The notes: generated from the sequence alone by a model not told the origin. Positions 5,610 to 43,836 are shown, counted from the first letter of the stretch. The stretch is 64,000 nucleotides of DNA from a virus (IMGVR_UViG_3300025732_000019); one strand, 5' to 3'. Numbers and translations are program-made.

Positions 5610-6536
5610 ATGGAGTTTGACATGGCGTTATCTGTTCGTGAACAATCGTTCTTGCTCGTTGCGGCCGTTGCTCTCGGTATTACACTCGGTGTTCTTGTGC
5701 GCCCTGCACCGTCAGGTTCAGATCTGAATGTCACATTAGCGCATCCAGCCCCAAACGTTGCCACACTACAAGTGCCTGTGCCTGTCGTCACCGAAAAAGT
5801 GGTGAAAGAGTACGTGCGTGTGGAAGACCGCGCGGCGCTGACGGCATTGATCGAAGAAAACCGAAAACTCAAAGTGCAGGTGCAAGAACTAAGCGTCACC
5901 GTGGCCGAATATCGCAGCGCAGGCACCGGCACTGCGACGGTGACACCGGCGACACCTGCGTCAGTAGAACCGGAACCCGTGCATGCGGAGTTTAAGGATT
6001 GGCGACTGGCATTTACATTGAATGGCACCGATGCTAACTACACGTTGACACAGAAGTTTGTCATTCTCAACACCGTAGGAAAGAACAAGAAGAATGTGCC
6101 AACGCAACTCATTCGATTGTATGAGGTGGGCCCCGATGAGCAGCGAACCCCCATTCCAACGGTCGAAACCACCACTATTGCCGCAACCGAAAATCTTCCC
6201 CATACGTTTTCACATATTACGGTACAAGCGGGGTTAGGTGCAACATTTTCGACGACAGGAACCACATCTTCGACACGTGCAGGAGTCGTGGCCGTCACGT
6301 GGTTACAACGAGGTCGTTCTATTGCTACGGCAGACACTCGTTGGTCGTACCTTGCGCCAGCCGTGGCGCTGACGAACACCGAGAAGATTATTGGTATTGT
6401 TCCCATTGCGTTCAATCTTGGTAGCCTACCCAAACAGCCATTTACCAATGTCTGGATCTCTCCGTTTGTTGGAACCACAGATATTGCTATTCCGCGAGTG
6501 ACGCGATTCGGAATATTTGGAACAGCAACATTTTAG
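5610..6536 (+). CDS. Membrane-anchored hypothetical protein (TM + coiled coil + beta-rich C-terminus); start may be 5622
   Basis: Hydrophobic N-terminal helix, heptad segment, terminal FGIFGTATF; GGAG precedes ATG 5622. Confidence 0.65.
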   Translation: MEFDMALSVREQSFLLVAAVALGITLGVLVRPAPSGSDLNVTLAHPAPNVATLQVPVPVVTEKVVKEYVRVEDRAALTALIEENRKLKVQVQELSVTVAEYRSAGTGTATVTPATPASVEPEPVHAEFKDWRLAFTLNGTDANYTLTQKFVILNTVGKNKKNVPTQLIRLYEVGPDEQRTPIPTVETTTIAATENLPHTFSHITVQAGLGATFSTTGTTSSTRAGVVAVTWLQRGRSIATADTRWSYLAPAVALTNTEKIIGIVPIAFNLGSLPKQPFTNVWISPFVGTTDIAIPRVTRFGIFGTATF

Positions 6537-6537
6537 G

Positions 6538-6566
6538 TTGACGTGCGCATCAACAGATCGTATAAT
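6538..6566 (+). promoter_or_regulatory. sigma70 early promoter
   Basis: TTGACG-17 nt-TATAAT, 8 nt before ATG 6575. Confidence 0.8.
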
Positions 6567-6574
6567 ATACAACT

Positions 6575-6970
6575 ATGAAGTCAAACACATCATCTCAACC
6601 GGCATGGTGTTGCCTTACGTGCGGCACTAAGTTTGGACGCTGGTACGTATCGGGCACATATACCGGCCCTGTTGGGCACCTCGCAACATGGCATCCCGGT
6701 ACCTGCGGCGTCTGTGGCTATGGACGTGAGGTTACGGAACCTCGCGACTTCGGATACCTCATTCCTGCATGGAACAAAAACCTTCACTTCCGCCTTCGGC
6801 CAAGAGCAAACAAACTCTCCAAGTTTGGCAAGCTACCTCGCAAAGCTGCTAAAGCCCACGAAACACGCAGAAAAAACAAAGCTCGAAAGCGTATGCTCAA
6901 AAAGATTGATGATGCGGTTCGTGCACGGCATAATGCGTTTGACCCGACGCCGCGCCTACGAAAAGCGTAA
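6575..6970 (+). CDS. Zn-finger protein with basic tail
   Basis: CCLTCG...GTCGVCG; K/R-rich C-terminal half. Confidence 0.6.
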   Translation: MKSNTSSQPAWCCLTCGTKFGRWYVSGTYTGPVGHLATWHPGTCGVCGYGREVTEPRDFGYLIPAWNKNLHFRLRPRANKLSKFGKLPRKAAKAHETRRKNKARKRMLKKIDDAVRARHNAFDPTPRLRKA

Positions 6971-7026
6971 GTGCGCTACAATATACGTTGTCACGTCTGT
7001 TTGATACATAGTTGAGGTAATACACA

Positions 7027-7218
7027 ATGCCACGATGGGATTTTCAATGTGAACAGTGCCGGTGCGTTATGGAGATCAGTTTTTCGTCATACGCTGCATC
7101 GGAAACGGCCACATGCCCGACGTGTCACTCTCCCCTTCGACGTCTTCCGAGCACCGCAGTTTTTACCATTCATGGATACAACGCAAAAAACCTCTATTCG
7201 ATCAAAGGAAAATCATGA
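7027..7218 (+). CDS. FmdB-family zinc ribbon protein
   Basis: MPRWDFQCEQC...CPTC...RLPS pattern; GAGGT RBS. Confidence 0.75.
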   Translation: MPRWDFQCEQCRCVMEISFSSYAASETATCPTCHSPLRRLPSTAVFTIHGYNAKNLYSIKGKS

Positions 7219-8165
7219 GCACAAACGCTAAAGGCGGCACAGAACTGATCTGCGCCAATCTTCACGCAGCACTTCCGGAATTAACCAGTCAGGTGCAGAT
7301 CATCATGTCGCGCCCAGAACAGGTGACGCTAGAAGACAAACCGCGTATTCTGTGGTTGCAAGATCTACCACAAGACCCTGCTAGTGCATGCCTTCGCGAT
7401 AAATCGTATCGCACACAGTTCAATCGTATTGTGTTCTGCTCACATTGGCAGCAACAGCAGTATCAACAGTATTTGGGCATTCCGTATGCAGAAGGCGTTG
7501 TCATCAAGAATGCGGTGCCGTTTCGTGAAGCGCAGTTTCCAAAGCCGCGCACGGAGAACAAGCTCAAGTTTATCTACACTTCGACGCCACATCGTGGATT
7601 AGCGGTTCTTGCGGCGGCCGCAGAAGCCCTCTCCAAGATTCGTCAGGATTGGGAACTGCATGTCTACTCCTCATTCAAGATCTACGGATGGGAAGGAGCG
7701 GATGCCCAGTTTGAACCACTCTACACGTTGCTGAAGAATAATCCCTGCGTCGTCTATCACGGCACACAGCCGAATGATGTCGTGCGTGACGCGTTGCAGT
7801 CATCTCATGTGTTTGTCTATCCGTCAATCTATGCGGAAACCTCATGCATGGCGATTCAGGAAGCCCTCATGTCTGGCTGTCTCGCGATCACCTCAAACTT
7901 TGGTGCGCTGCCAGAAACGTGCGCAGAGTGGGCATGGATGTTCCCGTTCGACGAACGGCCGGAACTCATGATTCATCGCACGTTAGCTGGCATGCAGCGC
8001 GCCTTGGAATCTTACGATGAACCGCTGATGCAGGAACAACTGCGTGTGCAGAGTCTCTACTATCAGCAGTTCTATGCGTTTGAAGGCCGAGTGCCGACAT
8101 GGAAGCGATTGCTGGAAATGGTCATTGAAGAAGGCACGCCGGTGCAGAAGCTGGTTATTGAATAA
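7215..8165 (+). CDS. Glycosyltransferase, GT4/GT-B family
   Basis: GGTE N-terminus, YTSTPHRGL, YPSIYAETSCMAIQEA (ExxxxxxxE); AAGGA RBS, ATGA overlap. Confidence 0.85.
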   Translation: MSTNAKGGTELICANLHAALPELTSQVQIIMSRPEQVTLEDKPRILWLQDLPQDPASACLRDKSYRTQFNRIVFCSHWQQQQYQQYLGIPYAEGVVIKNAVPFREAQFPKPRTENKLKFIYTSTPHRGLAVLAAAAEALSKIRQDWELHVYSSFKIYGWEGADAQFEPLYTLLKNNPCVVYHGTQPNDVVRDALQSSHVFVYPSIYAETSCMAIQEALMSGCLAITSNFGALPETCAEWAWMFPFDERPELMIHRTLAGMQRALESYDEPLMQEQLRVQSLYYQQFYAFEGRVPTWKRLLEMVIEEGTPVQKLVIE

Positions 8166-8410
8166 TGGCGCGAGTGATTCCCTTTCCGACGCCGGAGTCA
8201 ACACCAAACACCACAAATGTGGTGTTGACACGCGATGATCACAAAGAACGTCTTATTTCGGAAACGTCATTCTATTGTAAGCGATTGCTAGGATTTTATC
8301 GGTCAACCGGATTGTGGCACGACAAATGTAATCGCCCGATGGGCATGGCGATTCATTCGCTACAAGATGTCTGTAATCTCATGTTGGAGCAAGCACATGT
8401 TAAAGAATAA
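8165..8410 (+). CDS. Hypothetical protein
   Basis: TAATG coupling to the GT. Confidence 0.55.
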   Translation: MARVIPFPTPESTPNTTNVVLTRDDHKERLISETSFYCKRLLGFYRSTGLWHDKCNRPMGMAIHSLQDVCNLMLEQAHVKE

Positions 8411-8849
8411 AAACTTGGGTGAAGTCTTCGAACGTCAGCAGAAGTTGGTCAAAATTCCCGACAAAGTGGACAACTTACGGCAAAACGATACTCCCGGCAT
8501 GCGCTACATTTTGCAATTAGCGCATGCTGATGTAAAATGGTTGTTACCAGAAGGTGCACCACCGTACAAAGCGGATCCGGGCACACATGGATTGACGCCA
8601 TCGAACTTGTTTCGCGAACTACGAACGCTCTATTTGTTTCTCGACGGAGGCAATCCAACACTGACACGCTTGCGTCGTGAACAACTGTTTGTGCAACTAC
8701 TTGAACGTGTACATGTGTCTGAAGCAGAAATGTTGATTGCCTTGAAAGATAAGAAGTTTGTCAACAAGTATCGATGCCCTAAAAACGTGGTGGAAGAGGC
8801 GTTTCCGCAGTTGCTAGAACAACCATTTCAAATTCGGTTTATTCGGTAG
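8397..8849 (+). CDS. Conserved T4-like phage hypothetical protein
   Basis: WLLPEGAPPY...LYLFLDGGN...RREQLFVQLLE.VH..EAE pattern recalled from non-enteric T4-like phages. Confidence 0.7.
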   Translation: MLKNKNLGEVFERQQKLVKIPDKVDNLRQNDTPGMRYILQLAHADVKWLLPEGAPPYKADPGTHGLTPSNLFRELRTLYLFLDGGNPTLTRLRREQLFVQLLERVHVSEAEMLIALKDKKFVNKYRCPKNVVEEAFPQLLEQPFQIRFIR

Positions 8850-8864
8850 GAGAGGAACATCGTC

Positions 8865-9065
8865 ATGTCGAGAAGTTGGCAAGGAAAATACCGTGCTCGG
8901 GATTCCAAGAAAGTACAGAAGTCAAAGCGCAAACGAGAACCCAATGCCTACGACAGCAAGATTGTCAAACCGCCAACAAAAACTGAACTACGTAATACTT
9001 TGCAGCATGCTATCTTGACGCAAGACCATGAAGCATTTGAAGATTACGATGAATGGGAGTTCTAA
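8865..9065 (+). CDS. Hypothetical basic/acidic small protein
   Basis: GAGGA RBS; basic N-terminus, acidic C-terminus. Confidence 0.55.
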   Translation: MSRSWQGKYRARDSKKVQKSKRKREPNAYDSKIVKPPTKTELRNTLQHAILTQDHEAFEDYDEWEF

Positions 9066-9068
9066 TCG

Positions 9069-9407
9069 ATGAATACCAATGATGACATGCCAACGCCAGA
9101 TATTTCGAGTGTGGTGCAGTCTGTTATTGCGAAAAACTTGAACCTTGAGTATGAACGCGTGATTTCCCCATCGCGTCTTATTAACACCGTGATAGGAAGT
9201 CTGTGCTTTTTCAGTAGTGTGCGCGCCCTGTCACAGGGTACAACCCCAACAGATTTTGTCATTGGTGCGATCGCCGCTGCCGGTTTTTTGCGAGTAGTGG
9301 TCGGCCCGATTACTATAGTACAGTTGACTCATGCATCGTCTGTTCGCTTCGAGCAATGGTTGATGGAAGAAGACGCGAAAGACGATACGGAGAATAATGA
9401 TGCCTAA
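9069..9407 (+). CDS. Hypothetical membrane protein
   Basis: Two hydrophobic segments. Confidence 0.55.
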   Translation: MNTNDDMPTPDISSVVQSVIAKNLNLEYERVISPSRLINTVIGSLCFFSSVRALSQGTTPTDFVIGAIAAAGFLRVVVGPITIVQLTHASSVRFEQWLMEEDAKDDTENNDA

Positions 9408-9657
9408 TTATGATTTTCAATGCACCTCATGCGGCTTTACCGTCACCGATATGCAGTTGACAATTGCGAACCGCGACTATCCCACCACGCAGCCGTGCCC
9501 GCAGTGCAACGAACTCGGTTCAATTGAGCGGTGTGCATCCGCGCCCGGTGTGGGGTACACCATCAATCGCGGCGGATTGAAGACGCCTGAAGCGTTCAAA
9601 GACATTTTGCGCGACATTAAGAAACGGCACCGTCGCTCGACCATCAACATCGACTAA
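9397..9657 (+). CDS. FmdB-family zinc ribbon protein
   Basis: MPNYDFQCTSCG...PCPQC. Confidence 0.75.
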   Translation: MMPNYDFQCTSCGFTVTDMQLTIANRDYPTTQPCPQCNELGSIERCASAPGVGYTINRGGLKTPEAFKDILRDIKKRHRRSTINID

Positions 9658-9661
9658 CATC

Positions 9662-10339
9662 ATGTTTCATCACTATCCTCCACTGTCGCTTCCGACATTG
9701 GAGCAGATGAATCTGAAAACCGGTCGCGTTTATCACGTGCTCAACGGTGCAGACTCCGGCGTGCATTATCCGTCTATCACACGGGTACTCGGTGCAAAAC
9801 CCAAACCGCAATTGGAAGCGTGGAAACGGCGCGTGGGCCATCAAGAAGCACAACGCGTCTCACAAGCTGCGTCTGGGCGTGGTAAGAAACTGCATGCGCT
9901 GGTTGAGGAATACGTCGGTAATCATCCCATTGGCACAATTGAACCCCACGTCAATGAACTGTGGCAGCATCTATCGCCATGGCTCGATGCGCATATCACG
10001 GGTGTCTACGGTCAGGAATGCGATCTCTATTCACGCAAACTCGCAGTTGCGGGTCGTACCGACATGATTGCCACCGTTGATGGTGCATTGGCGATTGTCG
10101 ATTTTAAGCAAGCGAATCGGCCGAAACGCCCCGAATATGTTGGCGACTATTACCTTCAAGGTACGTTCTACAGTCTTGCTTTGTATGAACTAACAGGAAT
10201 GCAAGCAAAACATATTGTTATTCCAGTAGCTTCGCCAGAAGGATTGCAAGTTTTTGTCACACAACCGAAGCTTCATTACCAAGAACTTTTCAAGCGAATC
10301 AAGGATTTTTACATTGATCTGGAGATGCGAAGCGATTAG
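9662..10339 (+). CDS. PD-(D/E)xK exonuclease (Cas4-like phage exonuclease)
   Basis: YPSITRVL, RGKKLH, AGRTD, IVDFK, YYLQ...Y motifs. Confidence 0.8.
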   Translation: MFHHYPPLSLPTLEQMNLKTGRVYHVLNGADSGVHYPSITRVLGAKPKPQLEAWKRRVGHQEAQRVSQAASGRGKKLHALVEEYVGNHPIGTIEPHVNELWQHLSPWLDAHITGVYGQECDLYSRKLAVAGRTDMIATVDGALAIVDFKQANRPKRPEYVGDYYLQGTFYSLALYELTGMQAKHIVIPVASPEGLQVFVTQPKLHYQELFKRIKDFYIDLEMRSD

Positions 10340-35599: not shown

Positions 35600-36613
35600 T
35601 TAGCCAACAATAAACTGCGGCGGTTCCTGAAACTCTGTGCGCACTTGTTCTTCCAAATCGCGAATTTCCTGTTGCGCTTCTGACAGAATCGCACGACCGT
35701 CAAGATTCACTCCGCCGGGTAATGCGATGCCCGTGTACTTGGAAAGATTCAACCCCCATTGACGCTTGATCAAGGATGTGGCATACCGCTGCAACCACCG
35801 ATCACTCCATACATCGGTATACGCTGCGGGGTCGATGGTGCGATACCCTTCAAGCACAATGTGCTGACCGGGCGCGAATGTTGCATACCAGTTCACATCG
35901 ACGTAGAGACGATTCATGTGTCGTGAGAAGCGCACCGATGGCCGACCACGGAATGTGTCGTTCAGCAACTGCTGATACGAACGACCAATGTGATACGGGA
36001 TGATTGAATTGGAGGTGAAGTTCGACAACAGCGAGATATTGAACTGCGACTGCGGGTCGAACAGAATATCCGCAGAGATGCGCGAATCGAACGGGGGAAA
36101 TACCTTTGTAATGCCAATCACCGAATCGACAACGGGAAACCATTTGTTGTCCATGTCGCCAAACGTCACACCGTTGGCTGCCACAGTACCAGTCGCGCCC
36201 GATTGCTTGCCCAGAACAACTTCTCCCGCCACAAACGTCTTGCGAGCGGTATCACTGTAACTATCTGTGGTCGCAGCGCCGGTATTGGATGAGGCGACCG
36301 TAAAGAAAATAATGGAAGTTGAATTGACGGTACGCGTGACGATGCCTTGCACGTTTGACGTTTGACCGACAATCATTTCACTATTGGTAAAGGTTCCCGT
36401 GGTCGCTCCGGTAAACAGTAGTGTGCTGCCCGTTACCTCATGGCGCATATACGTCTTGACCACCGCATCCATGTGATACTGCTGATAGACGTATAGCGAC
36501 TCATCGATGCGATCTTCCACTTGCGCATCAGAGACGTTGATCTGAAGTACACCATCGCCAAGAGCGCGAAGGCAATACGATTTGAAATCGTTACGTGTAG
36601 TTGGAATGGCCAT
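35600..36613 (-). CDS. gp13: Neck protein gp13
   Basis: YCLRALG...INV...QVEDRID, WLQRYATSLIKRQWGLNLSKY, LPGGV. Confidence 0.95.
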   Translation of the reverse strand: MAIPTTRNDFKSYCLRALGDGVLQINVSDAQVEDRIDESLYVYQQYHMDAVVKTYMRHEVTGSTLLFTGATTGTFTNSEMIVGQTSNVQGIVTRTVNSTSIIFFTVASSNTGAATTDSYSDTARKTFVAGEVVLGKQSGATGTVAANGVTFGDMDNKWFPVVDSVIGITKVFPPFDSRISADILFDPQSQFNISLLSNFTSNSIIPYHIGRSYQQLLNDTFRGRPSVRFSRHMNRLYVDVNWYATFAPGQHIVLEGYRTIDPAAYTDVWSDRWLQRYATSLIKRQWGLNLSKYTGIALPGGVNLDGRAILSEAQQEIRDLEEQVRTEFQEPPQFIVG

Positions 36614-36619
36614 AAAAGG

Positions 36620-37975
36620 TTACGAAGCCCATTTATTGGTACCGACAGGCAGCACGAGGCGGCCTCCGGTGCTATCGAAACGTGCAATCGCATTGACACT
36701 GACATTCGCTCGCAAATCCGCGGCCCCCAATACGGCGAGTGTGCTATTGAGTGTGGTGGCGCCTGTGACCCCGAATGTACTCAGCGCATTGACTGCGCCT
36801 GTCACGCCCAAGGTACTCAGCGCATTGACTGCGCCTGTCACACCGAAAGTGCTCAATGCATTCACCGCGCCGGTCACGGATGCGGTATTGCTGAACGTGG
36901 CCGCCCCGGTAATACTTGCGGTTCCACCTATCGTCACATTACCGAATAGCGAATTGCCTACGACGTGTAACGGAGATGTGGGTGAACTGATATTCACGCC
37001 GACACGGTTGTTGACGGTATCGACAAACAAGACGTTGCTATCAACCGCGACGTTACTGGTAAATGACGCCACACCCGTCACATTGACGGTATCACTGAAT
37101 GTGGCGGCGCCAGACACAGATAATGTCGTGCTGGTGCCTGCAGGTGCCGCCAATAACCGCCAACGACCTGTGGCTGTGGTGTACAATAGCGGAATTGAAC
37201 CACCGGGTGGCACGTCAACATCTTGGTTGGAGACAGTCTTGAATCGGTTCAGGGCGCTCGATGACGGGTCTTCACTCTTGAGCGTAATCTTATAGGAACC
37301 GGATAGGTTCTGAAGGTATAGTACTTTAGCACCGATAGACAGGTTTGTGGGAGCGACAATACCCGTCAGAATAATATTCTGCGTATCCGGATTCATGTGC
37401 ACGACTTGCGCATCGTGCAATCCACTGGGATTGTAATTGTCGTATTGTGCTGACGACACGGTAGCCGCAATAACTGCTCCACTTTCGCTGAACAGAATTG
37501 ACCGCATGTAGGCGGTGTTCGATGCCACCAGATTGTTCGCAACGGAAACGTTGCTTGCAAATGATGCAACATTACCGATTGTCAGTGGCCCAGATGCGGT
37601 AAATGTGACCGCACCATTAAATGTGGCGGCAGCATTCACCGATAGCGGGCTGGCGTTAACGACGGTTCCACCGGGCGACTGGAATAGTGTCGTATTCGCG
37701 GACACACTGACGACCAGCGCGGAACTATTGACAGAGACGTTGGCGCCAAATGTCGAGTTTCCCGCAAGAAAAAGACCACTCAAGTTCGCGAGCGTTTTTC
37801 CGCCATTAAGCGACAGACTCGTATTTGTATGGGAAGAATTACCAATCGTGAAGGCACCGATAGCATTGCCGCCCACAACGACGGTATTGCTATTCAAAAG
37901 ATCAATAACCGTATTGGTACGGGTGACCCATGTGCGGAACGTATCGGTAGTTTGTATCGGTGTAATCAGTGGCAT
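36620..37975 (-). CDS. Fibre/whisker-like virion protein at the wac position
   Basis: N-terminal DTFRTWVTRTN motif, beta-rich repeats, immediately upstream of gp13, own late promoter. Confidence 0.65.
   Translation of the reverse strand: MPLITPIQTTDTFRTWVTRTNTVIDLLNSNTVVVGGNAIGAFTIGNSSHTNTSLSLNGGKTLANLSGLFLAGNSTFGANVSVNSSALVVSVSANTTLFQSPGGTVVNASPLSVNAAATFNGAVTFTASGPLTIGNVASFASNVSVANNLVASNTAYMRSILFSESGAVIAATVSSAQYDNYNPSGLHDAQVVHMNPDTQNIILTGIVAPTNLSIGAKVLYLQNLSGSYKITLKSEDPSSSALNRFKTVSNQDVDVPPGGSIPLLYTTATGRWRLLAAPAGTSTTLSVSGAATFSDTVNVTGVASFTSNVAVDSNVLFVDTVNNRVGVNISSPTSPLHVVGNSLFGNVTIGGTASITGAATFSNTASVTGAVNALSTFGVTGAVNALSTLGVTGAVNALSTFGVTGATTLNSTLAVLGAADLRANVSVNAIARFDSTGGRLVLPVGTNKWAS
36759..36877 (-). 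repeat. About 3.3 x 36-bp in-frame tandem repeat (VTGAVNALSTFG)
   Basis: Visible in both DNA and translation. Confidence 0.85.
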
Positions 37976-37987
37976 AGATGTCTATAT

Positions 37988-39292
37988 TTAGGTAAAAGTT
38001 GTCATGACTCCCATTTCCACGTTCGGTGTACGAATCAGGGGCGCGGGTGTGCCCACATGATATTGTTCACACAAGGTGCGCACGTCGATTTTTGCTTGCC
38101 AATCACTATAGCAATATGGAAACTGATATGGTATTTCTCGAATCCACGCCGCAACATTACTTGCGTCTGACGGAGACATTTCCGTCAGACGTGCAGGATT
38201 AAACAGCACCGCTGTAGGGTTCCAGTCGCGCCATGTGCCGTCTTGAATACGAGCCGCAGTAAACCGTGCTGTCGGAGAAATCGGATGTTGGGCACGATGA
38301 ATCGCGTCAGCGTTCGTATCCACTCCCGCAATACGAATATCTGGTCTATATATAGTTAGTCGTCGCAGCAGATGCCCATTTCCGCATCCGAGATCCAACA
38401 CACGTGCCTGCTCCGGTAATTGCGTCGCTAACGCAGGGATCATATCTTCGTGAGTCGTACGCATGCCTTCTGCAGACGAAAATTGATTATCCTTCCATAG
38501 CGTCTTTCGAACACGCTCATAGTGCCCCGTACGAAAGAACTGCTGTTTCTGCGGCGTCCAGTCGCTGCGTGTTGAGATCTTCAACGCAGGTGTGACGATC
38601 TCCGCAATACCAAATAGTCGTGACCACTTTAGCGGCCATGACAAGACTTCACGAATGGTGTGCATCTCCTCACGGTATCCATGTGCGCAACCCAAATCAA
38701 ACATCGCGTGACCGATGCGTTGCGACGCGTCGCACGTATAGGAACACGGCATATGCGACACCAAACGCAGGCCCATCCAGCGCAATAGGGTGCTCGCGTA
38801 GGGGTCGCTATTCGGATGCGCACCCTCGCGTGTTTGTTCCCACGTGCTATCGACACGACCCGCGCCCCATGTGGCATCATACGCGTCTCGGCAGCAGGCG
38901 GGATAGCCTAAGAGTTCGCCATACTGCGCATCGGTTTGTGGAAACGCCCGGTCATAGTATTGCGGGTTCAAATACAAAACCCGATAGACGAATTTTCCAT
39001 CGCGAATGGGTTGAGAGGTGCTGCTATACGAAGAGGCAACACCTACGGTAGTTTGTGGTACGCATAGAATGTTATGCCGCGCAGCCCAGCGGGTGGCCTC
39101 AATAAGACCATCGGAAGGAACATTCTGAAACGCGGCGGGTCGCAGACCGTGCACAACAGCCAATCGTTCGACATCTTGATACGCATTACTCGCACGCGTG
39201 AACAATGGTTGCCACCACTCGCGTTCATCAGCACTGCGCCATGACCATCGTGTCCAATCCGGGAGTACCGGAACATTATCTCTTGTTGACAT
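37988..39292 (-). CDS. Cys-motif domain fused to class I SAM-dependent methyltransferase (434 aa)
   Basis: LLGYPACC and SHMPCSYTC motifs; C-terminal VLDLGCGNG and GVD; GGAG RBS before ATG 39292, overlapping the rSAM end. Confidence 0.75.
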   Translation of the reverse strand: MSTRDNVPVLPDWTRWSWRSADEREWWQPLFTRASNAYQDVERLAVVHGLRPAAFQNVPSDGLIEATRWAARHNILCVPQTTVGVASSYSSTSQPIRDGKFVYRVLYLNPQYYDRAFPQTDAQYGELLGYPACCRDAYDATWGAGRVDSTWEQTREGAHPNSDPYASTLLRWMGLRLVSHMPCSYTCDASQRIGHAMFDLGCAHGYREEMHTIREVLSWPLKWSRLFGIAEIVTPALKISTRSDWTPQKQQFFRTGHYERVRKTLWKDNQFSSAEGMRTTHEDMIPALATQLPEQARVLDLGCGNGHLLRRLTIYRPDIRIAGVDTNADAIHRAQHPISPTARFTAARIQDGTWRDWNPTAVLFNPARLTEMSPSDASNVAAWIREIPYQFPYCYSDWQAKIDVRTLCEQYHVGTPAPLIRTPNVEMGVMTTFT

Positions 39293-40619
39293 CTGTATGA
39301 TCTCCATGATCAGAATAATCACCGTGGGGAACGTCATCGTGCGTATGGGGCTGTGTATCCGTATGATCGCCGTGCTGGTCACCGTGCTTCGTCGCGGGTG
39401 TGGTGCTCGATGACGGCTGCGTGTACTTACTCAAATATGGCGTTTCTTCTTGCGACCATGCGGCGTACATCTGCGCTTCAATTTCTGTGCGCTTGGGGTG
39501 CTCGGAAAACGGCACTTCACCCGCGGCGCGAAGTCGTCGTGCGCCTTCCGCAAATAGACGCTTGAAGGTGCCGCAGTACGTGGAGCGCATGCGCCAATCG
39601 TGATTCGCGCCTTCACCGGGGCATTGCCCGTAACACATGAGCCAATATTCACATCCCTGACATCCACCGTATTCCTGCGGCGTGACATACAACGCAAGTT
39701 GTCGTTCAAAATGTCGAGCACCGGGATGACCGATAAACGTTGAAGCACCGTTTTTCGTGCCGCATCCTTCGGCCGGCAACCAGTTTTGACCATCCTTATT
39801 GGTGCGTGAACAATGCGACGGCGAACCATCATTCTCAATACCATTTACTGCACTGGTATTCCACGGGTCGCAAGGTTTCCAATGACATACGACTGAATCT
39901 CCGTTCCCGCGCTGGAGTTTCAGGATCTCGTCAAACTTGGAGATGCGCAACTGTTTGAATGAAGGCAGGATATTCCAGATCTCAATCAGCCGATCTGCAA
40001 TCTCCTCACTAGGAAGATACAGTTCGTGCGCTTTATGATCCATCTCCATCAAATGCATATTGACATGACGCACACCCATTGTGTCTAGTTCGTGCAACCA
40101 TTCAAGAAATCGAGGAAAGCGATCCGCTCGGCAGTTGCCGGCATGCAGCGTCACGATCAAACTGGGGAGTAAATGCGGAGTGGTGACCGCGCGGCCGCAG
40201 AGTTCTTTCAATGCCCACATGGTACGTTGTGTCTGTTTTCGTGTCGCCTCTAAAGTGCCTGCCCATCGACTATCGTTCAGTTCATCGGGGCCATCCATTG
40301 AGATGCCCACATGCGTGTTATATTTGATGAAGAGTTCGATGTGTTTTTCGGTAATGAGCGACGCATTCGTTTGCACACCCGAATGGCCAAAACGTGTGTG
40401 CGCGATCTGTAACAGTTCGTCTAGATCTTTGAGAGAAAGAATGAGAGCTTCGCCCCCAAACAAGGAGAAGTATTCGTCCGGCTTGAGCTTGTCGATGGCT
40501 GCAAGCACGGCCTTACGGTCATACTTGTGAGATTTTTGCACATTGCGCATTTCCGTTTCGTAACAATACTTGCATTGTATGTTGCACGTAACACCTACAG
40601 GTCTAACTTCAATACTCAT
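39276..40619 (-). CDS. Radical SAM/SPASM-domain maturase with HxD-repeat C-terminal tail
   Basis: CNIQCKYC (CxxxCxxC), FGGEAL, QTN, ISMDGP; SPASM-type Cys CHWKPC...C...CQGCEYWLMCYGQCP...YC. Confidence 0.9.
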   Translation of the reverse strand: MSIEVRPVGVTCNIQCKYCYETEMRNVQKSHKYDRKAVLAAIDKLKPDEYFSLFGGEALILSLKDLDELLQIAHTRFGHSGVQTNASLITEKHIELFIKYNTHVGISMDGPDELNDSRWAGTLEATRKQTQRTMWALKELCGRAVTTPHLLPSLIVTLHAGNCRADRFPRFLEWLHELDTMGVRHVNMHLMEMDHKAHELYLPSEEIADRLIEIWNILPSFKQLRISKFDEILKLQRGNGDSVVCHWKPCDPWNTSAVNGIENDGSPSHCSRTNKDGQNWLPAEGCGTKNGASTFIGHPGARHFERQLALYVTPQEYGGCQGCEYWLMCYGQCPGEGANHDWRMRSTYCGTFKRLFAEGARRLRAAGEVPFSEHPKRTEIEAQMYAAWSQEETPYLSKYTQPSSSTTPATKHGDQHGDHTDTQPHTHDDVPHGDYSDHGDHTDVNKR

Positions 40620-40635
40620 AATAAACTACTTTCTC

Positions 40636-41295
40636 CTATGAACCTACGTAGACGGGTTGATCGTTATGTGCGACGTCACTGTGTGTGTCGTCATGAGAGG
40701 AACTATCGCTATGCACAGAATCCGTATGCACATCGACGTGCCCATCGCTGAAATAATCGGCATGATCCGCATGATTGTCGGTATGAGTGTCACCATAATC
40801 TGTATGCCACTCTGGCGCATCGTTGTGAAAATACGTATCGGTATGTACGTCATCATGATACGAGTCGGAATAGTCTGTATGAGATGAATAATAATCGTCG
40901 TGATCACTATAGCCGGCCGCGTCGCCATGACTTACACTATCACTATGTGAGTCAGTGTGTGCAATATCATCATGCACCGCATACTCATAGTTATTGTTCC
41001 CGATAATCCGCAGTTGTACGTTTCCAGTGGAGGCACTCGTGCCTCCGCTATTCGACACCCAAATAGAACCCGCAATAGCGCCTGTGCGGTTCGCAATCGA
41101 TGTGACGTTGAGTGTGCGGGCAAACCCACTGGCATCAACATAGCGAAGATTGGTGCCTTCCACCCACAACGAACCCACAATAGCACCAGATGCTAAACCG
41201 GTATTGCTGCCAATCGCGTACCACTCGACACCAGATGCATCGATGTAATGTACGGTGTTTCCGGCGACCCAAATGCTACCTGCTGTTTTTGCCAT
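40636..41295 (-). CDS. HxD-repeat protein 2 (putative rSAM substrate / virion appendage)
   Basis: Three GSxWV repeats, then 19 H-x-D plus Y/F-x-D motifs. Confidence 0.8.
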   Translation of the reverse strand: MAKTAGSIWVAGNTVHYIDASGVEWYAIGSNTGLASGAIVGSLWVEGTNLRYVDASGFARTLNVTSIANRTGAIAGSIWVSNSGGTSASTGNVQLRIIGNNNYEYAVHDDIAHTDSHSDSVSHGDAAGYSDHDDYYSSHTDYSDSYHDDVHTDTYFHNDAPEWHTDYGDTHTDNHADHADYFSDGHVDVHTDSVHSDSSSHDDTHSDVAHNDQPVYVGS

Positions 41296-41299
41296 AATC

Positions 41300-42016
41300 T
41301 TATCCTACGTAGACGGGCTGATCGTTATGCGCAACGTCACTGTGCGTCACATCCGCATGTGCCACATCGTTGTGTGTGGCACTATCGCTATGTGAATCGC
41401 TATGCACAGAATCCGTATGCGAATCGACGTGCCCATCGTTGAAATAATCGCCATGATCGGCGTGATTATCGGTATGAGAGTCGCCATAATCTTCATGATA
41501 CTCCGGCGCATCGTTGTGATAATATGTATCGGTGTGCGAGTCATCATGATACGAGTCGGAATAGTCTGTATGAGATGAATAATAATCATTGTGATCACTA
41601 TAGCCGGCAGTATCACTATGTGAATCGTAATGAGTTACGCTATCGGTGTGCGTAATGTCGCTATGCGGCACATCGGTATGCGACACATCATCATGCACTG
41701 CATACTCGTAATTATTGGTGCCGATGATGCGAAGTTGCACATTACCGGTATTCGCGCTGGTGCCCGAGGTGTTCGACACCCATAGCGACCCCGCGACAGA
41801 ATTAGCGCGGCTCGCAATCGTCGCGACATTCAGTGTGCGCTTGTATTGGTTCTCGTCGATGTACGCGAGATTACTGTTTTCGACCCAGATGGAACCGGCG
41901 ACCGCATTCGAGACAAGACCTGTATTGCTCCCAATCGCATACCATTCAACGCCCGAAGCGTCAATATAATGAAACGTGTTTCCGGATACCCACACACTGC
42001 CTGCGGTCTTAGCCAT
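41300..42016 (-). CDS. HxD-repeat protein 1 (paralog)
   Basis: Same architecture with 23 H-x-D motifs. Confidence 0.8.
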   Translation of the reverse strand: MAKTAGSVWVSGNTFHYIDASGVEWYAIGSNTGLVSNAVAGSIWVENSNLAYIDENQYKRTLNVATIASRANSVAGSLWVSNTSGTSANTGNVQLRIIGTNNYEYAVHDDVSHTDVPHSDITHTDSVTHYDSHSDTAGYSDHNDYYSSHTDYSDSYHDDSHTDTYYHNDAPEYHEDYGDSHTDNHADHGDYFNDGHVDSHTDSVHSDSHSDSATHNDVAHADVTHSDVAHNDQPVYVG

Positions 42017-42018
42017 GA

Positions 42019-43731
42019 TTATGTTGTCGCGTACTTATTCGCACCTACCGGCACGACGAGTCTTCCGGAAGTCGTGTCACATCGCACGATACCGTTGGCG
42101 CTGACAGAGCCGGCACTCCCGCTGACGCGAAGCAATTCAAGTAATGATTGATTGTCTGTATTTGCAGTGCCCACATATCCGATGATGACGTTGCCTGCAT
42201 CCGCACGCAGTACCGCACCAGCACGTGTGCCGCGTGTGCGATAGGTATCGCTGTTGGTACCGGCTTCGCAGTTGAATGCGATGAAAGGCGCGCCAGTGGT
42301 TTCACTGCCAATAACGGACTGAAACCCATCGTTGGCCGCGCCGAACTCCATTGACGACCCGCTGCGTCGCACACTCAGGAGTGCGCTGGTGACGGAACCG
42401 TTCACCGCAGCATTTCCCACATAGACACCTGTGCTGTTCGCAACGATCAGGTTCGCGCCTATTGTGGTGTTGCCCGATACGGTAAGTGTACTGAGAGTAC
42501 CAAGACCGGTGATGCCGGTATACGCACCCGACAACTGCGCGTTGGCCAATGTGCCCGTAGTAATGTTCGTCGCGTTCGTATAGTAGGAAGCGGCTTGACC
42601 ATTGAGATACGTGGTGTTATTCGCCGAATACGATGTACCCGTAAACACGGTAGAGTTGACGACAGCGCCATTCAACCCGATACTGCCTGCGGTAATCGCG
42701 GTGTTGACGGAACTGTTGCCAACAAAGTACGCGGACACATTCAACGAGACGTTTGCGCCCAGCGATACGCTACTGACGAGCAGCGCGGAACTATTCAGAC
42801 TGGTATTGACAGAGGAGTTTCCAAGTGTGAGTACACTGCCGGTAAACGACAGGTTCGCTGATGCATCAATCGCGTTGGTGCTGGTGTTCCAATATTGCAC
42901 CGCACCATTTCCACCTGCGCTACTTCCACCCGAGACGGTACTCCAATACGCAGTCGTTCCATTTGACGTGAGCACCTGTCCAGAAGTGCCAGTGCTACCA
43001 TTAGCAGTAATGGTTCGATCTACGGGCACCACGAGGCCCGTCGTAATCGCGGAAGACGTAATCGTCGTATTGACGCTACTGTTCCCTATGACAATCGCTG
43101 ACGTGTTACTGACCACATTCGCGCCGACGGCCAGTGCTGTAGTATTGGCCACGACGTTGCCTGTCGTCACGGTTGTGAATGACGGAGTGTCCGAGATCGA
43201 AACCGCAACGCTTCCCGATGATGCATTGACGGAGATTGGTAGTTGCCCAGCAAGTGCGGTGACACCAAGATTCGTGATGACGCCGGTGCTGTTACTATAG
43301 CCAATACCCGCACCATTGCTTACCGCGGCACGTGCGCGAGTATCGGTATAGTATTGATTGGTGCCTTCGGGAACAGCCGTCGTATTGATCGCGGCGCCAT
43401 TGAGAGTGAGTGTGCCACTGACCGTCAGATTACCGGTACTTGTGTTTGTGCTCACATTCAATGTGGCAATTGATGCGTTTCCGCTGACGACCAGCGCGAC
43501 GGTATTGATCGTGGCGTTGACAGTTAGATTGGCGTTTGCAGAGGTGTTTCCACGCAGACTCGTCGTCGCGAGAACCGTCAGCGTATTCGTCGTGATCTGC
43601 TCGACGACCAAATTACCGGAGATGTCACCAATTTTCAATACATTCGTGTTGAGTTCCGTCGCTACCGCATTGACGGTTGTGACAAGATCTTCGAACGTAT
43701 TTGCAAGTGTCAGTGGATCGATAGTGGCCAT
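42019..43731 (-). CDS. Tail-fibre-like protein
   Basis: ANTFEDLV..VN N-terminus, VPEGTNQYYTDTRARAA and GTSGQVLTSNG fibre motifs; late promoter. Confidence 0.75.
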   Translation of the reverse strand: MATIDPLTLANTFEDLVTTVNAVATELNTNVLKIGDISGNLVVEQITTNTLTVLATTSLRGNTSANANLTVNATINTVALVVSGNASIATLNVSTNTSTGNLTVSGTLTLNGAAINTTAVPEGTNQYYTDTRARAAVSNGAGIGYSNSTGVITNLGVTALAGQLPISVNASSGSVAVSISDTPSFTTVTTGNVVANTTALAVGANVVSNTSAIVIGNSSVNTTITSSAITTGLVVPVDRTITANGSTGTSGQVLTSNGTTAYWSTVSGGSSAGGNGAVQYWNTSTNAIDASANLSFTGSVLTLGNSSVNTSLNSSALLVSSVSLGANVSLNVSAYFVGNSSVNTAITAGSIGLNGAVVNSTVFTGTSYSANNTTYLNGQAASYYTNATNITTGTLANAQLSGAYTGITGLGTLSTLTVSGNTTIGANLIVANSTGVYVGNAAVNGSVTSALLSVRRSGSSMEFGAANDGFQSVIGSETTGAPFIAFNCEAGTNSDTYRTRGTRAGAVLRADAGNVIIGYVGTANTDNQSLLELLRVSGSAGSVSANGIVRCDTTSGRLVVPVGANKYATT

Positions 43732-43836
43732 ACCGATATTTAGAAGACTGCACGGGACACCCCCGACGAATGGCTGTTTGGGATGTCCGATGAGTTGGAT
43801 GTAGAATACTTCGTGGAAATGCTTACCAACGAGTAG

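Follow-up and report, generated by a model that had tools for sequence, protein, structure and literature searches.

A candidate radical SAM module for the covalent maturation of tail-fibre proteins in a distant T4-like phage

Radical S-adenosylmethionine (SAM) enzymes with SPASM domains are known to act on repeated aromatic-x-X3 motifs in the triceptide systems (XncB, OscB, MscB, YxdB, HaaB, YhhB, HtkB and ChlB), the products of which include crosslinks from His-C2 to a beta-carbon (C-beta) as well as bonds that tie Trp, Tyr or Phe to an Asp or Asn C-beta (PMC11002830, PMC11499958). Here we describe a comparable arrangement in a 64,000-nucleotide (nt) stretch of DNA from the virus IMGVR_UViG_3300025732_000019, the whole of which is referred to below as the window. 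A five-gene cassette at positions 37,988-43,743 encodes, in this order, a fibre, two repeat proteins rich in His-x-Asp (H-x-D) triplets, termed HxD-A and HxD-B, a radical SAM/SPASM enzyme and a fusion of a DUF483-like domain with a methyltransferase. We assign a probability of roughly 0.6 to the reading that the cassette is a late-expressed module which matures tail-fibre proteins post-translationally, by radical stapling of His, Phe or Tyr to the beta-carbon of Asp or Asn.

The cassette and the triceptide systems have in common a SPASM enzyme of the anSME-related group, the repeated aromatic-x-X3 motif and, in some clusters, tailoring by a beta-hydroxylase of the aKG-HExxH type. As is typical of the triceptide class, a candidate substrate with conserved aromatic-X2-X3 triplets is encoded beside the enzyme. 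The differences are, however, considerable: triceptide substrates are short leader-core peptides, whereas the candidate substrates of the cassette are fibre proteins of 200-1200 residues with 10-93 sites each; no protease or exporter accompanies them; the enzyme reaches 70 bits or less with the curated models, against cut-offs of 310-450; and it is paired with DUF483, for whose fold the Protein Data Bank (PDB) offers no clear relative. A His-x-Asp pairing was not found among the described triceptide motifs. The repeat proteins also fall outside the RiPPs (peptides that are ribosomally synthesised and then modified post-translationally) in the strict sense, where a short leader-core precursor loses its leader and the product is released, as they measure 173-1186 residues across the relatives and several are fused to fibres.

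The bacterial antiphage system HXS (HxsA-D; PMC13128918) is the closest published example of radical SAM enzymes that mature a repeat protein of the His-x-small-residue type; it likewise combines the repeat protein with a radical SAM enzyme and a small partner and functions at the phage-host interface, as the cassette would. In HXS, five basic HxS repeats are processed by two enzymes, with N-terminal cleavage, periplasmic export and a mass change of +8 Da (PMC13128918), whereas the cassette arrays are acidic, far longer and encoded in tail modules. With anSME (PDB 4K36) the enzyme shares the absence of an N-terminal leader-binding or recognition domain, two fully Cys-ligated auxiliary clusters, a protein as the presumed substrate and a beta-carbon as the presumed site; anSME differs in its substrate motif, C/S-x-P/A-x-R, and in having no DUF483 partner. 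This motif is impossible in the arrays of HxD-A and HxD-B, because they contain neither Cys nor Lys or Arg. A further parallel is offered by the HxH motifs at the tip of the T4 fibre protein gp37, which reportedly bind iron and place periodic His motifs in a distal tail fibre, as would be the case here; gp37 is, however, said to have no dedicated enzyme, whereas in the cassette family Phe replaces His at part of the sites and a radical SAM enzyme is always co-encoded.

The three-gene family itself has been noticed before, as an 'rSAM module' of phages and prophages for which a role in DNA modification was proposed (bioRxiv 10.1101/2024.08.14.607894, PMC11437467). The module of the Thermus phages Cumys and phiMa is of the same family, its enzyme being 37-38% and its DUF483 protein 31% identical to those of the window, and the 'unknown' protein in it is an H-x-D repeat protein; unlike the window, the Thermus modules have no methyltransferase domain. 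Neither the repeats nor the fibre context is mentioned in the preprint (10.1101/2024.08.14.607894). A preliminary description of the window, made from its sequence, knew of no RiPP-style maturase dedicated to phage structural proteins; this holds insofar as literature searches for a radical SAM enzyme with a phage fibre or virion protein as its target returned nothing relevant, but the three genes had already been recognised as a module in the preprint.

Repeat proteins and their tail-fibre context

HxD-A and HxD-B are 79% identical, and nearly all of their His residues, 23 of 24 and 19 of 20, respectively, belong to H-x-D triplets. The sole exception in each is H16, located in the N-terminal domain, which in HxD-A covers residues 1-107 and contains three GSxWV...YID units. 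Five Y/F-x-D triplets are also present in each array, and the array Asp residues occupy the third position of an aromatic-x-D triplet in 28 of 29 cases in HxD-A and 24 of 27 in HxD-B, the remainder being middle residues of triplets. In 100,000 shuffles of array A, none exceeded 13 H-x-D triplets, against the 23 observed. The counts of 23 and 19 H-x-D motifs in the preliminary description were reproduced, as was its statement that each array His has Asp at +2, from which H16 deviates only outside the array; the four Y/F-x-D that it gave for each paralog were too few by one.

Both arrays are poor in hydrophobic residues (9-11%) and strongly acidic, with 31 and 28 Asp and Glu, no Lys or Arg and no Cys, and the spacing of the triplets is irregular, ranging from 1 to 7 residues and mostly from 3 to 7. 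No significant tandem DNA repeats were found in the arrays, so the pattern is maintained by selection at the protein level, and DNA slippage was rejected as their origin on the same ground. A pentapeptide-repeat beta-helix, as suggested by the HSNIG and FSNIA units of some relatives, was rejected for the window because of the irregular triplet spacing and the lack of a Pfam pentapeptide match. Searches of Pfam, NCBIfam and PHROGs gave nothing for the repeat proteins or the first fibre except a disregarded sub-threshold match to Atu4866; an ESM Atlas look-up with HxD-A returned nothing, and a database search with the N-terminal domain alone retrieved just six proteins, all unnamed.

The motif is sharply defined across the family. 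In 60 non-identical repeat proteins with 14,059 array residues, Asp or Asn occupies the +2 position of 1903 of the 1920 His residues (99.1%; 1419 Asp and 484 Asn), at a combined Asp and Asn content of 21%, and Ser is found there twice. For Phe, the corresponding fraction is 77%. Some relatives are built from five-residue units, x.N[IV][GA], in which the slot x holds His 220 times, Phe 91 times and another residue 5 times, and Cys, Glu and Gln were not seen to substitute for His in the repeat slot. Since an aromatic ring is all that His and Phe have in common, this pattern argues against a purely metal-ligand role and for an aromatic-x-(Asp/Asn) unit, of which the spacing and the middle residue are free to vary. 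The H-x-D motif as first described is therefore retained as to the aromatic residue at i and Asp at +2 but has to be widened to His, Phe or Tyr, any residue, and Asp or Asn.

The combination of genes is as well conserved as the motif. By tblastn, the Thermus phages Cumys, phiMa and phiLo were found to encode homologs of the enzyme with 37-40% identity; the gene that precedes the enzyme in the first two encodes a 343-residue protein with the same N-terminal domain and with all of its 54 His residues in H-x-D (54/54), the following gene is annotated as a DUF483 protein, and the three-gene set comes after baseplate and tail-collar-fibre genes. A pattern scan of IMG/VR for the enzyme yielded 41 loci. 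In these, in the three Thermus phages and in three T4-like relatives the enzyme is nearly always found with DUF483 and a repeat protein, the IMG/VR exceptions being loci cut by contig ends, and where enough flank is available DUF483 is mostly fused to the methyltransferase and one to five His-rich repeat proteins are present in a variable gene order. The T4-like metagenome relatives (L103, L105 and L106; L numbers denote individual loci) keep the order of fibre, repeat protein, enzyme, DUF483-methyltransferase, fibre and gp13. As negative controls, the 57 genome loci with other SPASM enzymes among the matches listed contain no repeat protein, while the single true ortholog among the genome matches listed, in an Acidobacteriota metagenome-assembled genome (MAG; L046), has one. 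The co-occurrence of enzyme homologs with H-x-D proteins, on which the preliminary description had let its reading stand or fall beforehand, was thus observed at nearly every phage locus with enough flank, and, of the synteny that it proposed to look for in tail modules, the pairing of enzyme and repeat protein is seen in the IMG/VR loci, the Thermus phages and the T4-like relatives.

At L046, a contig of 2.6 Mb, the region 5700-10320 is a cellular copy and holds the enzyme, the DUF483-methyltransferase and the H-x-D array gene, which is followed by a gene for a PqqD-family peptide chaperone (PF05402, 48 bits); phage genes were not recognised in the 13 kb seen, where naive open reading frame (ORF) calls are unreliable in the high-GC DNA. 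L105 contains two fibre/repeat-protein pairs, with 40 and 47 triplets.

The genes around the cassettes match baseplate, tail, tail-fibre and minor-tail families, and some loci have in-frame fusions of an array with a tail protein, 500-1200 residues in length. The fusion partners are a J-like central tail fibre (phrog_31, E 4e-47; PF13550), tail fibres of the collagen-like type (PF01391) and a virion protein with Laminin_G_3. The sequences thus support the view that tail fibres include the arrays. In most lineages, Cumys and phiMa included, a LVLPVGTN(K/L)WAT-like sequence forms the end of the gene immediately upstream of the repeat protein, and both window fibres flanking the cassette have such an end (42019-42060 and 36620-36660, minus strand), their last 41 residues being 49% identical. 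The end resembles (L/V)(V/I)(L/V)PVG.(N/D).(W/Y)A(T/S), and a strict pattern finds it in only 16 of about 945 ORFs of at least 100 residues in 44 loci. The GSxWV N-terminal domain of the repeat protein likely docks to this PVGxNKW-type fibre end.

Cys-rich end domains are found in some of the repeat proteins, and the collagen-like neighbours end in a Cys-rich peptide, VVCAARPVGCLGTFTCV (L026:547-2190, L028:3988-5148, L017:1391-1936 and L031:1102-1842 for both features together), which suggests that fibre tips in the Cys-rich clade may be knotted by disulfides.

Radical SAM/SPASM enzyme and DUF483 partner

The match of the enzyme to PF04055 (E 3.6e-14, 53.7 bits against a cut-off of 29.5) and the CxxxCxxC cysteines C12, C16 and C19, which are invariant in 22 homologs, place it in the radical SAM superfamily. 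The SPASM pattern, defined as C-x9-15-G-x4-C, gap, C-x2-C-x5-C-x3-C, gap, C, is complete as C250-x14-G265-x4-C270, C320-x2-C323-x5-C329-x3-C333 and C349 and is likewise invariant in the 22 homologs, with C245 as a further invariant Cys. The best full-length match is anSME (PDB 4K36, E 8e-18), and the cyclophane synthase ChlB matches the N-terminal part only (E 5.7e-9). Over the 22 family members, the best NCBIfam values are those of anSME (8.5e-25), DynA (7.8e-23), the cyclophane-type AmcB (7.2e-21) and YhhB, a maker of His/Tyr cyclophanes (4.3e-19). All 22 members match the curated cyclophane models only weakly; with the models tested (AmcB NF041718, YhhB NF041707, GrrM/OscB TIGR04261, XyeB TIGR04496 and FxsB TIGR04269) the window enzyme stays below the thresholds for cyclophane synthases, at 69.9 against 425, 45.7 against 445, 37.5 against 310 and 36.3 against 450. 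The anSME model TIGR03942 gives 69.2 bits against a cut-off of 349.45 and the HXS model HxsB TIGR03978 30 bits against 370. Since every NCBIfam match lies far under its cut-off, the enzyme represents a separate family. The CxxxCxxC and SPASM cysteines named in the preliminary description are those listed above, and the profile placement that it recommended groups the enzyme with anSME and the cyclophane-type peptide maturases. The protein database contains 700 homologs at E 1e-20 or better, of which the best 120 are all at least 42% identical and almost all unnamed.

An H-x-D-type tail, with at least three triplets in the last 70 residues, is present in 75 of 121 database homologs of the enzyme, and some tails extend to about 200 residues; possible roles of the tail are those of a substrate for the enzyme itself, of an element for docking or of a store of metal. 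The tail units are of the PHGDHTD type, and in a clade with short tails a separate protein of 118-132 residues with two HADHVD motifs is encoded between the enzyme and DUF483; these features were noted in P0091, P0092 and P0109 and at L013:7322-7690, L027:7339-7737 and L030:7335-7691. L105:4973-8362 holds two tandem enzyme paralogs, one of which has 673 residues and 24 Hx[DN] triplets, mostly in a long C-terminal extension.

The DUF483-like domain comprises residues 1-260 of the fusion protein and has invariant C133, C134, H180 and C187 and a nearly invariant C183. Against the DUF483 model PF04467 (gathering threshold 25 bits) the window protein scores 15.6 bits, the Cumys protein 16.1 and the L027 homolog 27.0, and on these profile scores the window domain is a distant branch of the DUF483 family. 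Its structural model has a pLDDT of 92.4. A Foldseek search of the PDB with this model gave nothing at E 0.001 or better, and a wide fold search returned as the best match 2guk_B, a protein of unknown function (Z 7.2, root-mean-square deviation (r.m.s.d.) 3.3, 99 residues aligned), along with NleE (Z 4.1); an assignment of function from these matches was rejected, as they provide no basis for it. ESM Atlas look-ups with the domain gave DUF483-type leads only.

The methyltransferase occupies residues 262-434 and is of class I, as had been read from the last gene of the cassette; the Pfam match (PF13847, 34.1 bits against a cut-off of 27) and the fold match of the model to 2yqz_A (Z 14.4, r.m.s.d. 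3.3, 159 residues aligned) agree in this. The domain is missing not only from Cumys and phiMa but also from the IMG/VR loci L043 and L011, which suggests that it provides an optional tailoring step. The partnership originally proposed, that of a radical SAM enzyme, H-x-D proteins and a methyltransferase, accordingly stands as to the pairing of enzyme and repeat protein, but the conserved third component is DUF483 and not the methyltransferase.

Complex prediction for the enzyme and the DUF483-methyltransferase gave an ipSAE of 0.83, compared with 0.00 for the best of three controls. Of 80 solved complexes 58 attain the mark applied to this score, as do 2 of 110 mismatched pairs, a calibration that is only rough because the alignments were the study's own. 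At least 43% of the contacts are common to the runs, with a partner pLDDT of at least 82. In the predicted interface, the SPASM region of the enzyme (residues 253-344 and 388-391) faces DUF483 residues 7-24 and 226-249, and the contact surface contains invariant residues from either side: R306, L310, P314, D341 and R343 on the enzyme, and on DUF483 W18 together with the LHGIAE motif. The models therefore support binding of the DUF483 domain by the enzyme; a similar solved complex was not found, as far as fold searches show.

Proposed modification and its alternatives

In the proposed model, HxD-A and HxD-B would form distal parts of the fibre, each consisting of a small N-terminal domain, which probably attaches the protein to the PVGxNKW-type end of the upstream-encoded fibre, and of the acidic, hydrophobic-poor aromatic-x-(Asp/Asn) array. 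The radical SAM/SPASM enzyme, working in complex with the DUF483 domain, would use the 5'-deoxyadenosyl radical to take a beta-hydrogen from Asp or Asn at i+2, and the resulting carbon radical would attack the His imidazole or the Phe or Tyr ring at i, with an auxiliary Fe-S cluster accepting the electron. Each reaction would close a macrocycle of three residues and lower the mass by 2 Da, at about 28 candidate sites in HxD-A and about 24 in HxD-B. Such stapling, with the fused methyltransferase as an optional tailoring step, would result in a rigid rod that is tolerant of proteases and heat and in which the imidazole nitrogens and carboxylates remain free for metal. What the sequences show is the conserved association of the genes, the strictness of the motif, the fusions of arrays with fibre proteins, the family neighbourhood of the enzyme and a predicted interface between enzyme and DUF483; we infer the bond type, the methylation, the presence in the virion and how the repeat protein is attached to the fibre encoded upstream. 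HaaB, YhhB and HtkB join His-C2 to a C-beta, OscB, XncB and YxdB use the C-beta of Asp or Asn, and XncB and OscB link Phe-x-Asn (PMC11002830, PMC11499958), so each half of the His/Phe-to-Asp/Asn staple has a precedent. The wider proposition, that in many phage lineages a part of the fibre is a polymer of consecutive three-residue macrocycles, with tens to about 90 His/Phe-Asp/Asn C-C staples per chain installed by an unrecognised two-protein radical SAM-DUF483 enzyme, is more tentative, and we would put it at slightly under even odds.

Several points weigh against the stapling model. The enzyme scores far under every curated cyclophane-synthase cut-off and at full length is slightly nearer to anSME, which oxidises its substrate and does not crosslink it. 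Tyr is followed by Asp or Asn at +2 in 21% of cases across the 60 repeat proteins, a value equal to background, and the enzyme itself bears an H-x-D tail for which the model does not account. A Nanopelagicales MAG (L104) carries the enzyme and DUF483 with no repeat ORF in 13.4 kb of its 27.9-kb contig. Radical SAM enzymes also require reducing conditions, which may be a difficulty in an oxygenic or aerobic host. Finally, in a beta-strand His and Asp at i and i+2 would point to one side, where they might do no more than coordinate metal.

This last point is the starting point of a different interpretation, in which the arrays are metal-binding ladders (for Fe, Zn, Ni or Ca, with ligands from neighbouring strands or chains) and the radical SAM-DUF483 pair makes some other change, with epimerisation, C-methylation, beta-thiolation or hydroxylation of Asp or Asn and a modification of His as candidates. 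Besides the common orientation of residues i and i+2, it would account for the acidic and His-rich composition of the arrays and agree with an oxidising enzyme, anSME, as the best full-length match; the beta-hydroxylase of some cassettes may mean that the Asp or Asn beta-carbon is oxidised and not crosslinked, and the +8 Da change on the HxS motif of HXS is not crosslink-like (PMC13128918). We nevertheless regard such ladders as a rather unlikely full explanation, as Phe, which is unable to ligate metal, is apart from five other residues the sole replacement for His in the repeat slot, none of the alternative ligands Cys, Glu and Gln takes the place of His, and the strict i/i+2 relation with free spacing fits the substrate logic of three-residue cyclophanes. 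Metal binding and stapling are in any case compatible with each other.

The repeat proteins might instead be precursors of a released product, metal-chelating or host-directed, so that the cassette would be a RiPP or auxiliary metabolic function placed in the late region. The Acidobacteriota version, which neighbours a PqqD chaperone and shows no evident phage gene over the 13 kb seen, points in this direction, and the conserved C-terminal QPVxVG and the N-terminal domain could serve as recognition sequences; however, a conserved protease or exporter was not found in the cassettes, the in-frame fusions join the arrays to J-like, collagen-like and lectin-type tail proteins of 500-1200 residues, and the cassette recurs in the tail modules of otherwise unrelated phage lineages, which together make a released product improbable. 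A modification of DNA or nucleotides by the radical SAM-DUF483(-methyltransferase) proteins, with the repeat proteins as unrelated neighbours, appears very improbable indeed. Although homologs have been reported near deazapurine DNA-modification genes in some cyanobacterial genomes in the preprint (10.1101/2024.08.14.607894) and DNA methyltransferases are often encoded by phages, the repeat protein accompanies the enzyme through changes of gene order and across unrelated phages, the enzyme often bears H-x-D triplets on its own tail and is related to peptide and protein maturases, the accessory genes code for peptide hydroxylases and a peptide chaperone, and no conserved nucleotide-metabolism gene was found in the cassettes.

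If the wider proposition holds, the fibre polymer would be a new protein material, a rigid rod that presents metal and can do without a hydrophobic core, and also the first virion protein to be matured by a radical SAM enzyme. To our knowledge, proteolysis and self-catalysed capsid crosslinks make up most of the covalent maturation described for phage particles, and a dedicated radical enzyme that rewrites the chemistry of a receptor-binding appendage would add a layer to phage assembly, stability and host recognition. Stapling would also carry cyclophane-type chemistry over from short peptides to entire structural proteins, with sites by the tens, and would assign a role to DUF483 and to a family of unnamed enzyme clusters, at least 120 in number and all at least 42% identical to the window enzyme. 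Possible yields are heat- and protease-resistant stapled scaffolds and enzymes that handle very many sites per substrate. The cultured Thermus phages Cumys, phiMa and phiLo make the hypothesis directly testable.

Cassette layout and accessory genes

The five genes run in the same direction on the minus strand and are bracketed by two CTAAATA motifs (Table 1). The intergenic distances are 2, 4 and 16 nt, and from the coordinates the enzyme and DUF483-methyltransferase genes overlap by 17 nt; the length of the latter protein is counted from the ATG that gives this overlap, the longest ORF beginning at 39382. A convincing terminator was not found within the block. The co-orientation of the genes, their gaps and overlap, both CTAAATA motifs and the position of the cassette one gene upstream of gp13 are as the preliminary description gave them. 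In the window, the minus strand has 15 copies of CTAAATA and the plus strand 2, against an expectation of about 3.8 for each, and most copies lie 4-17 nt ahead of an ATG. The minus-strand sites span 13526 to 62342 and include those at 43737, 45857, 46800 and 48264. T4-type late promoters are TATAAATA-like elements upstream of late genes that are recognised by gp55, and the CTAAATA motifs, being enriched, strand-biased and placed just ahead of start codons, are putative late promoters. With the motif at only 4-17 nt from the ATG at most sites, late mRNAs would have little or no leader, too short for a Shine-Dalgarno sequence. A megablast search of 50,697 phage records with the cassette gave no matches, and the window gp13 is 35% identical to that of Synechococcus phage BUCT-ZZ01; on sequence grounds, the window phage is a distant T4-like myovirus without a close cultured relative.

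Table 1 Features of the cassette and its surroundings in the window, and loci of related features in relatives.
Feature	Coordinates	Strand	Remarks
CTAAATA motif, T4-type late-promoter-like	43737..43743	-	5 nt ahead of fibre start codon
First fibre, 570 residues	42019..43731	-	No His; C-terminal peptide RLVVPVGANKYATT
HxD-A, 238 residues	41300..42016	-	N-terminal domain, array with 23 H-x-D and 5 Y/F-x-D, QPVYVG end
HxD-B, 219 residues	40636..41295	-	HxD-A paralog; 19 H-x-D and 5 Y/F-x-D
Radical SAM/SPASM enzyme, 447 residues	39276..40619	-	Pfam PF04055, CxxxCxxC, SPASM cysteines
Enzyme C-terminal tail, ~40 residues	39276..39398	-	All seven enzyme H-x-D triplets (HGD/HTD units)
DUF483-like domain and class I SAM methyltransferase fusion, 434 residues	37988..39292	-	
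Second CTAAATA motif	37985..37991	-	Overlaps the DUF483-methyltransferase stop codon
Second fibre, 451 residues	36620..37975	-	N- and C-terminal ends (RLVLPVGTNKWAS) common to first fibre
gp13	35600..36613		After second fibre, one gene past the cassette
Fibre-end loci	L001:4658-4951; L007, L010, L012, L018, L019, L021, L034-L039, L103, L105		
aKG-HExxH-type beta-hydroxylase genes	L103:4098-5042, L105:13491-14594, L007:4054-4989, L005:4854-5696, L023:1463-2239		
~210-residue protein loci	L007:4986-5621, L019:3370-3999, L010, L012, L015, L016		

Among the accessory genes, the aKG-HExxH peptide beta-hydroxylase matches TIGR04267 with 70.5 bits in L005 (cut-off 40) and with 27-35 bits in L103, L105 and L007. 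A homolog was not found in the 64-kb window (tblastn, E 0.001 or better), and the closest T4-like relative is among the carriers. Pathways of peptide maturation are typically marked by such a hydroxylase and by PqqD (PMC12636437). Where a clade has the alternative gene order, the DUF483-methyltransferase and the enzyme are separated by a gene for a conserved protein, about 210 residues long, that belongs to no known family.

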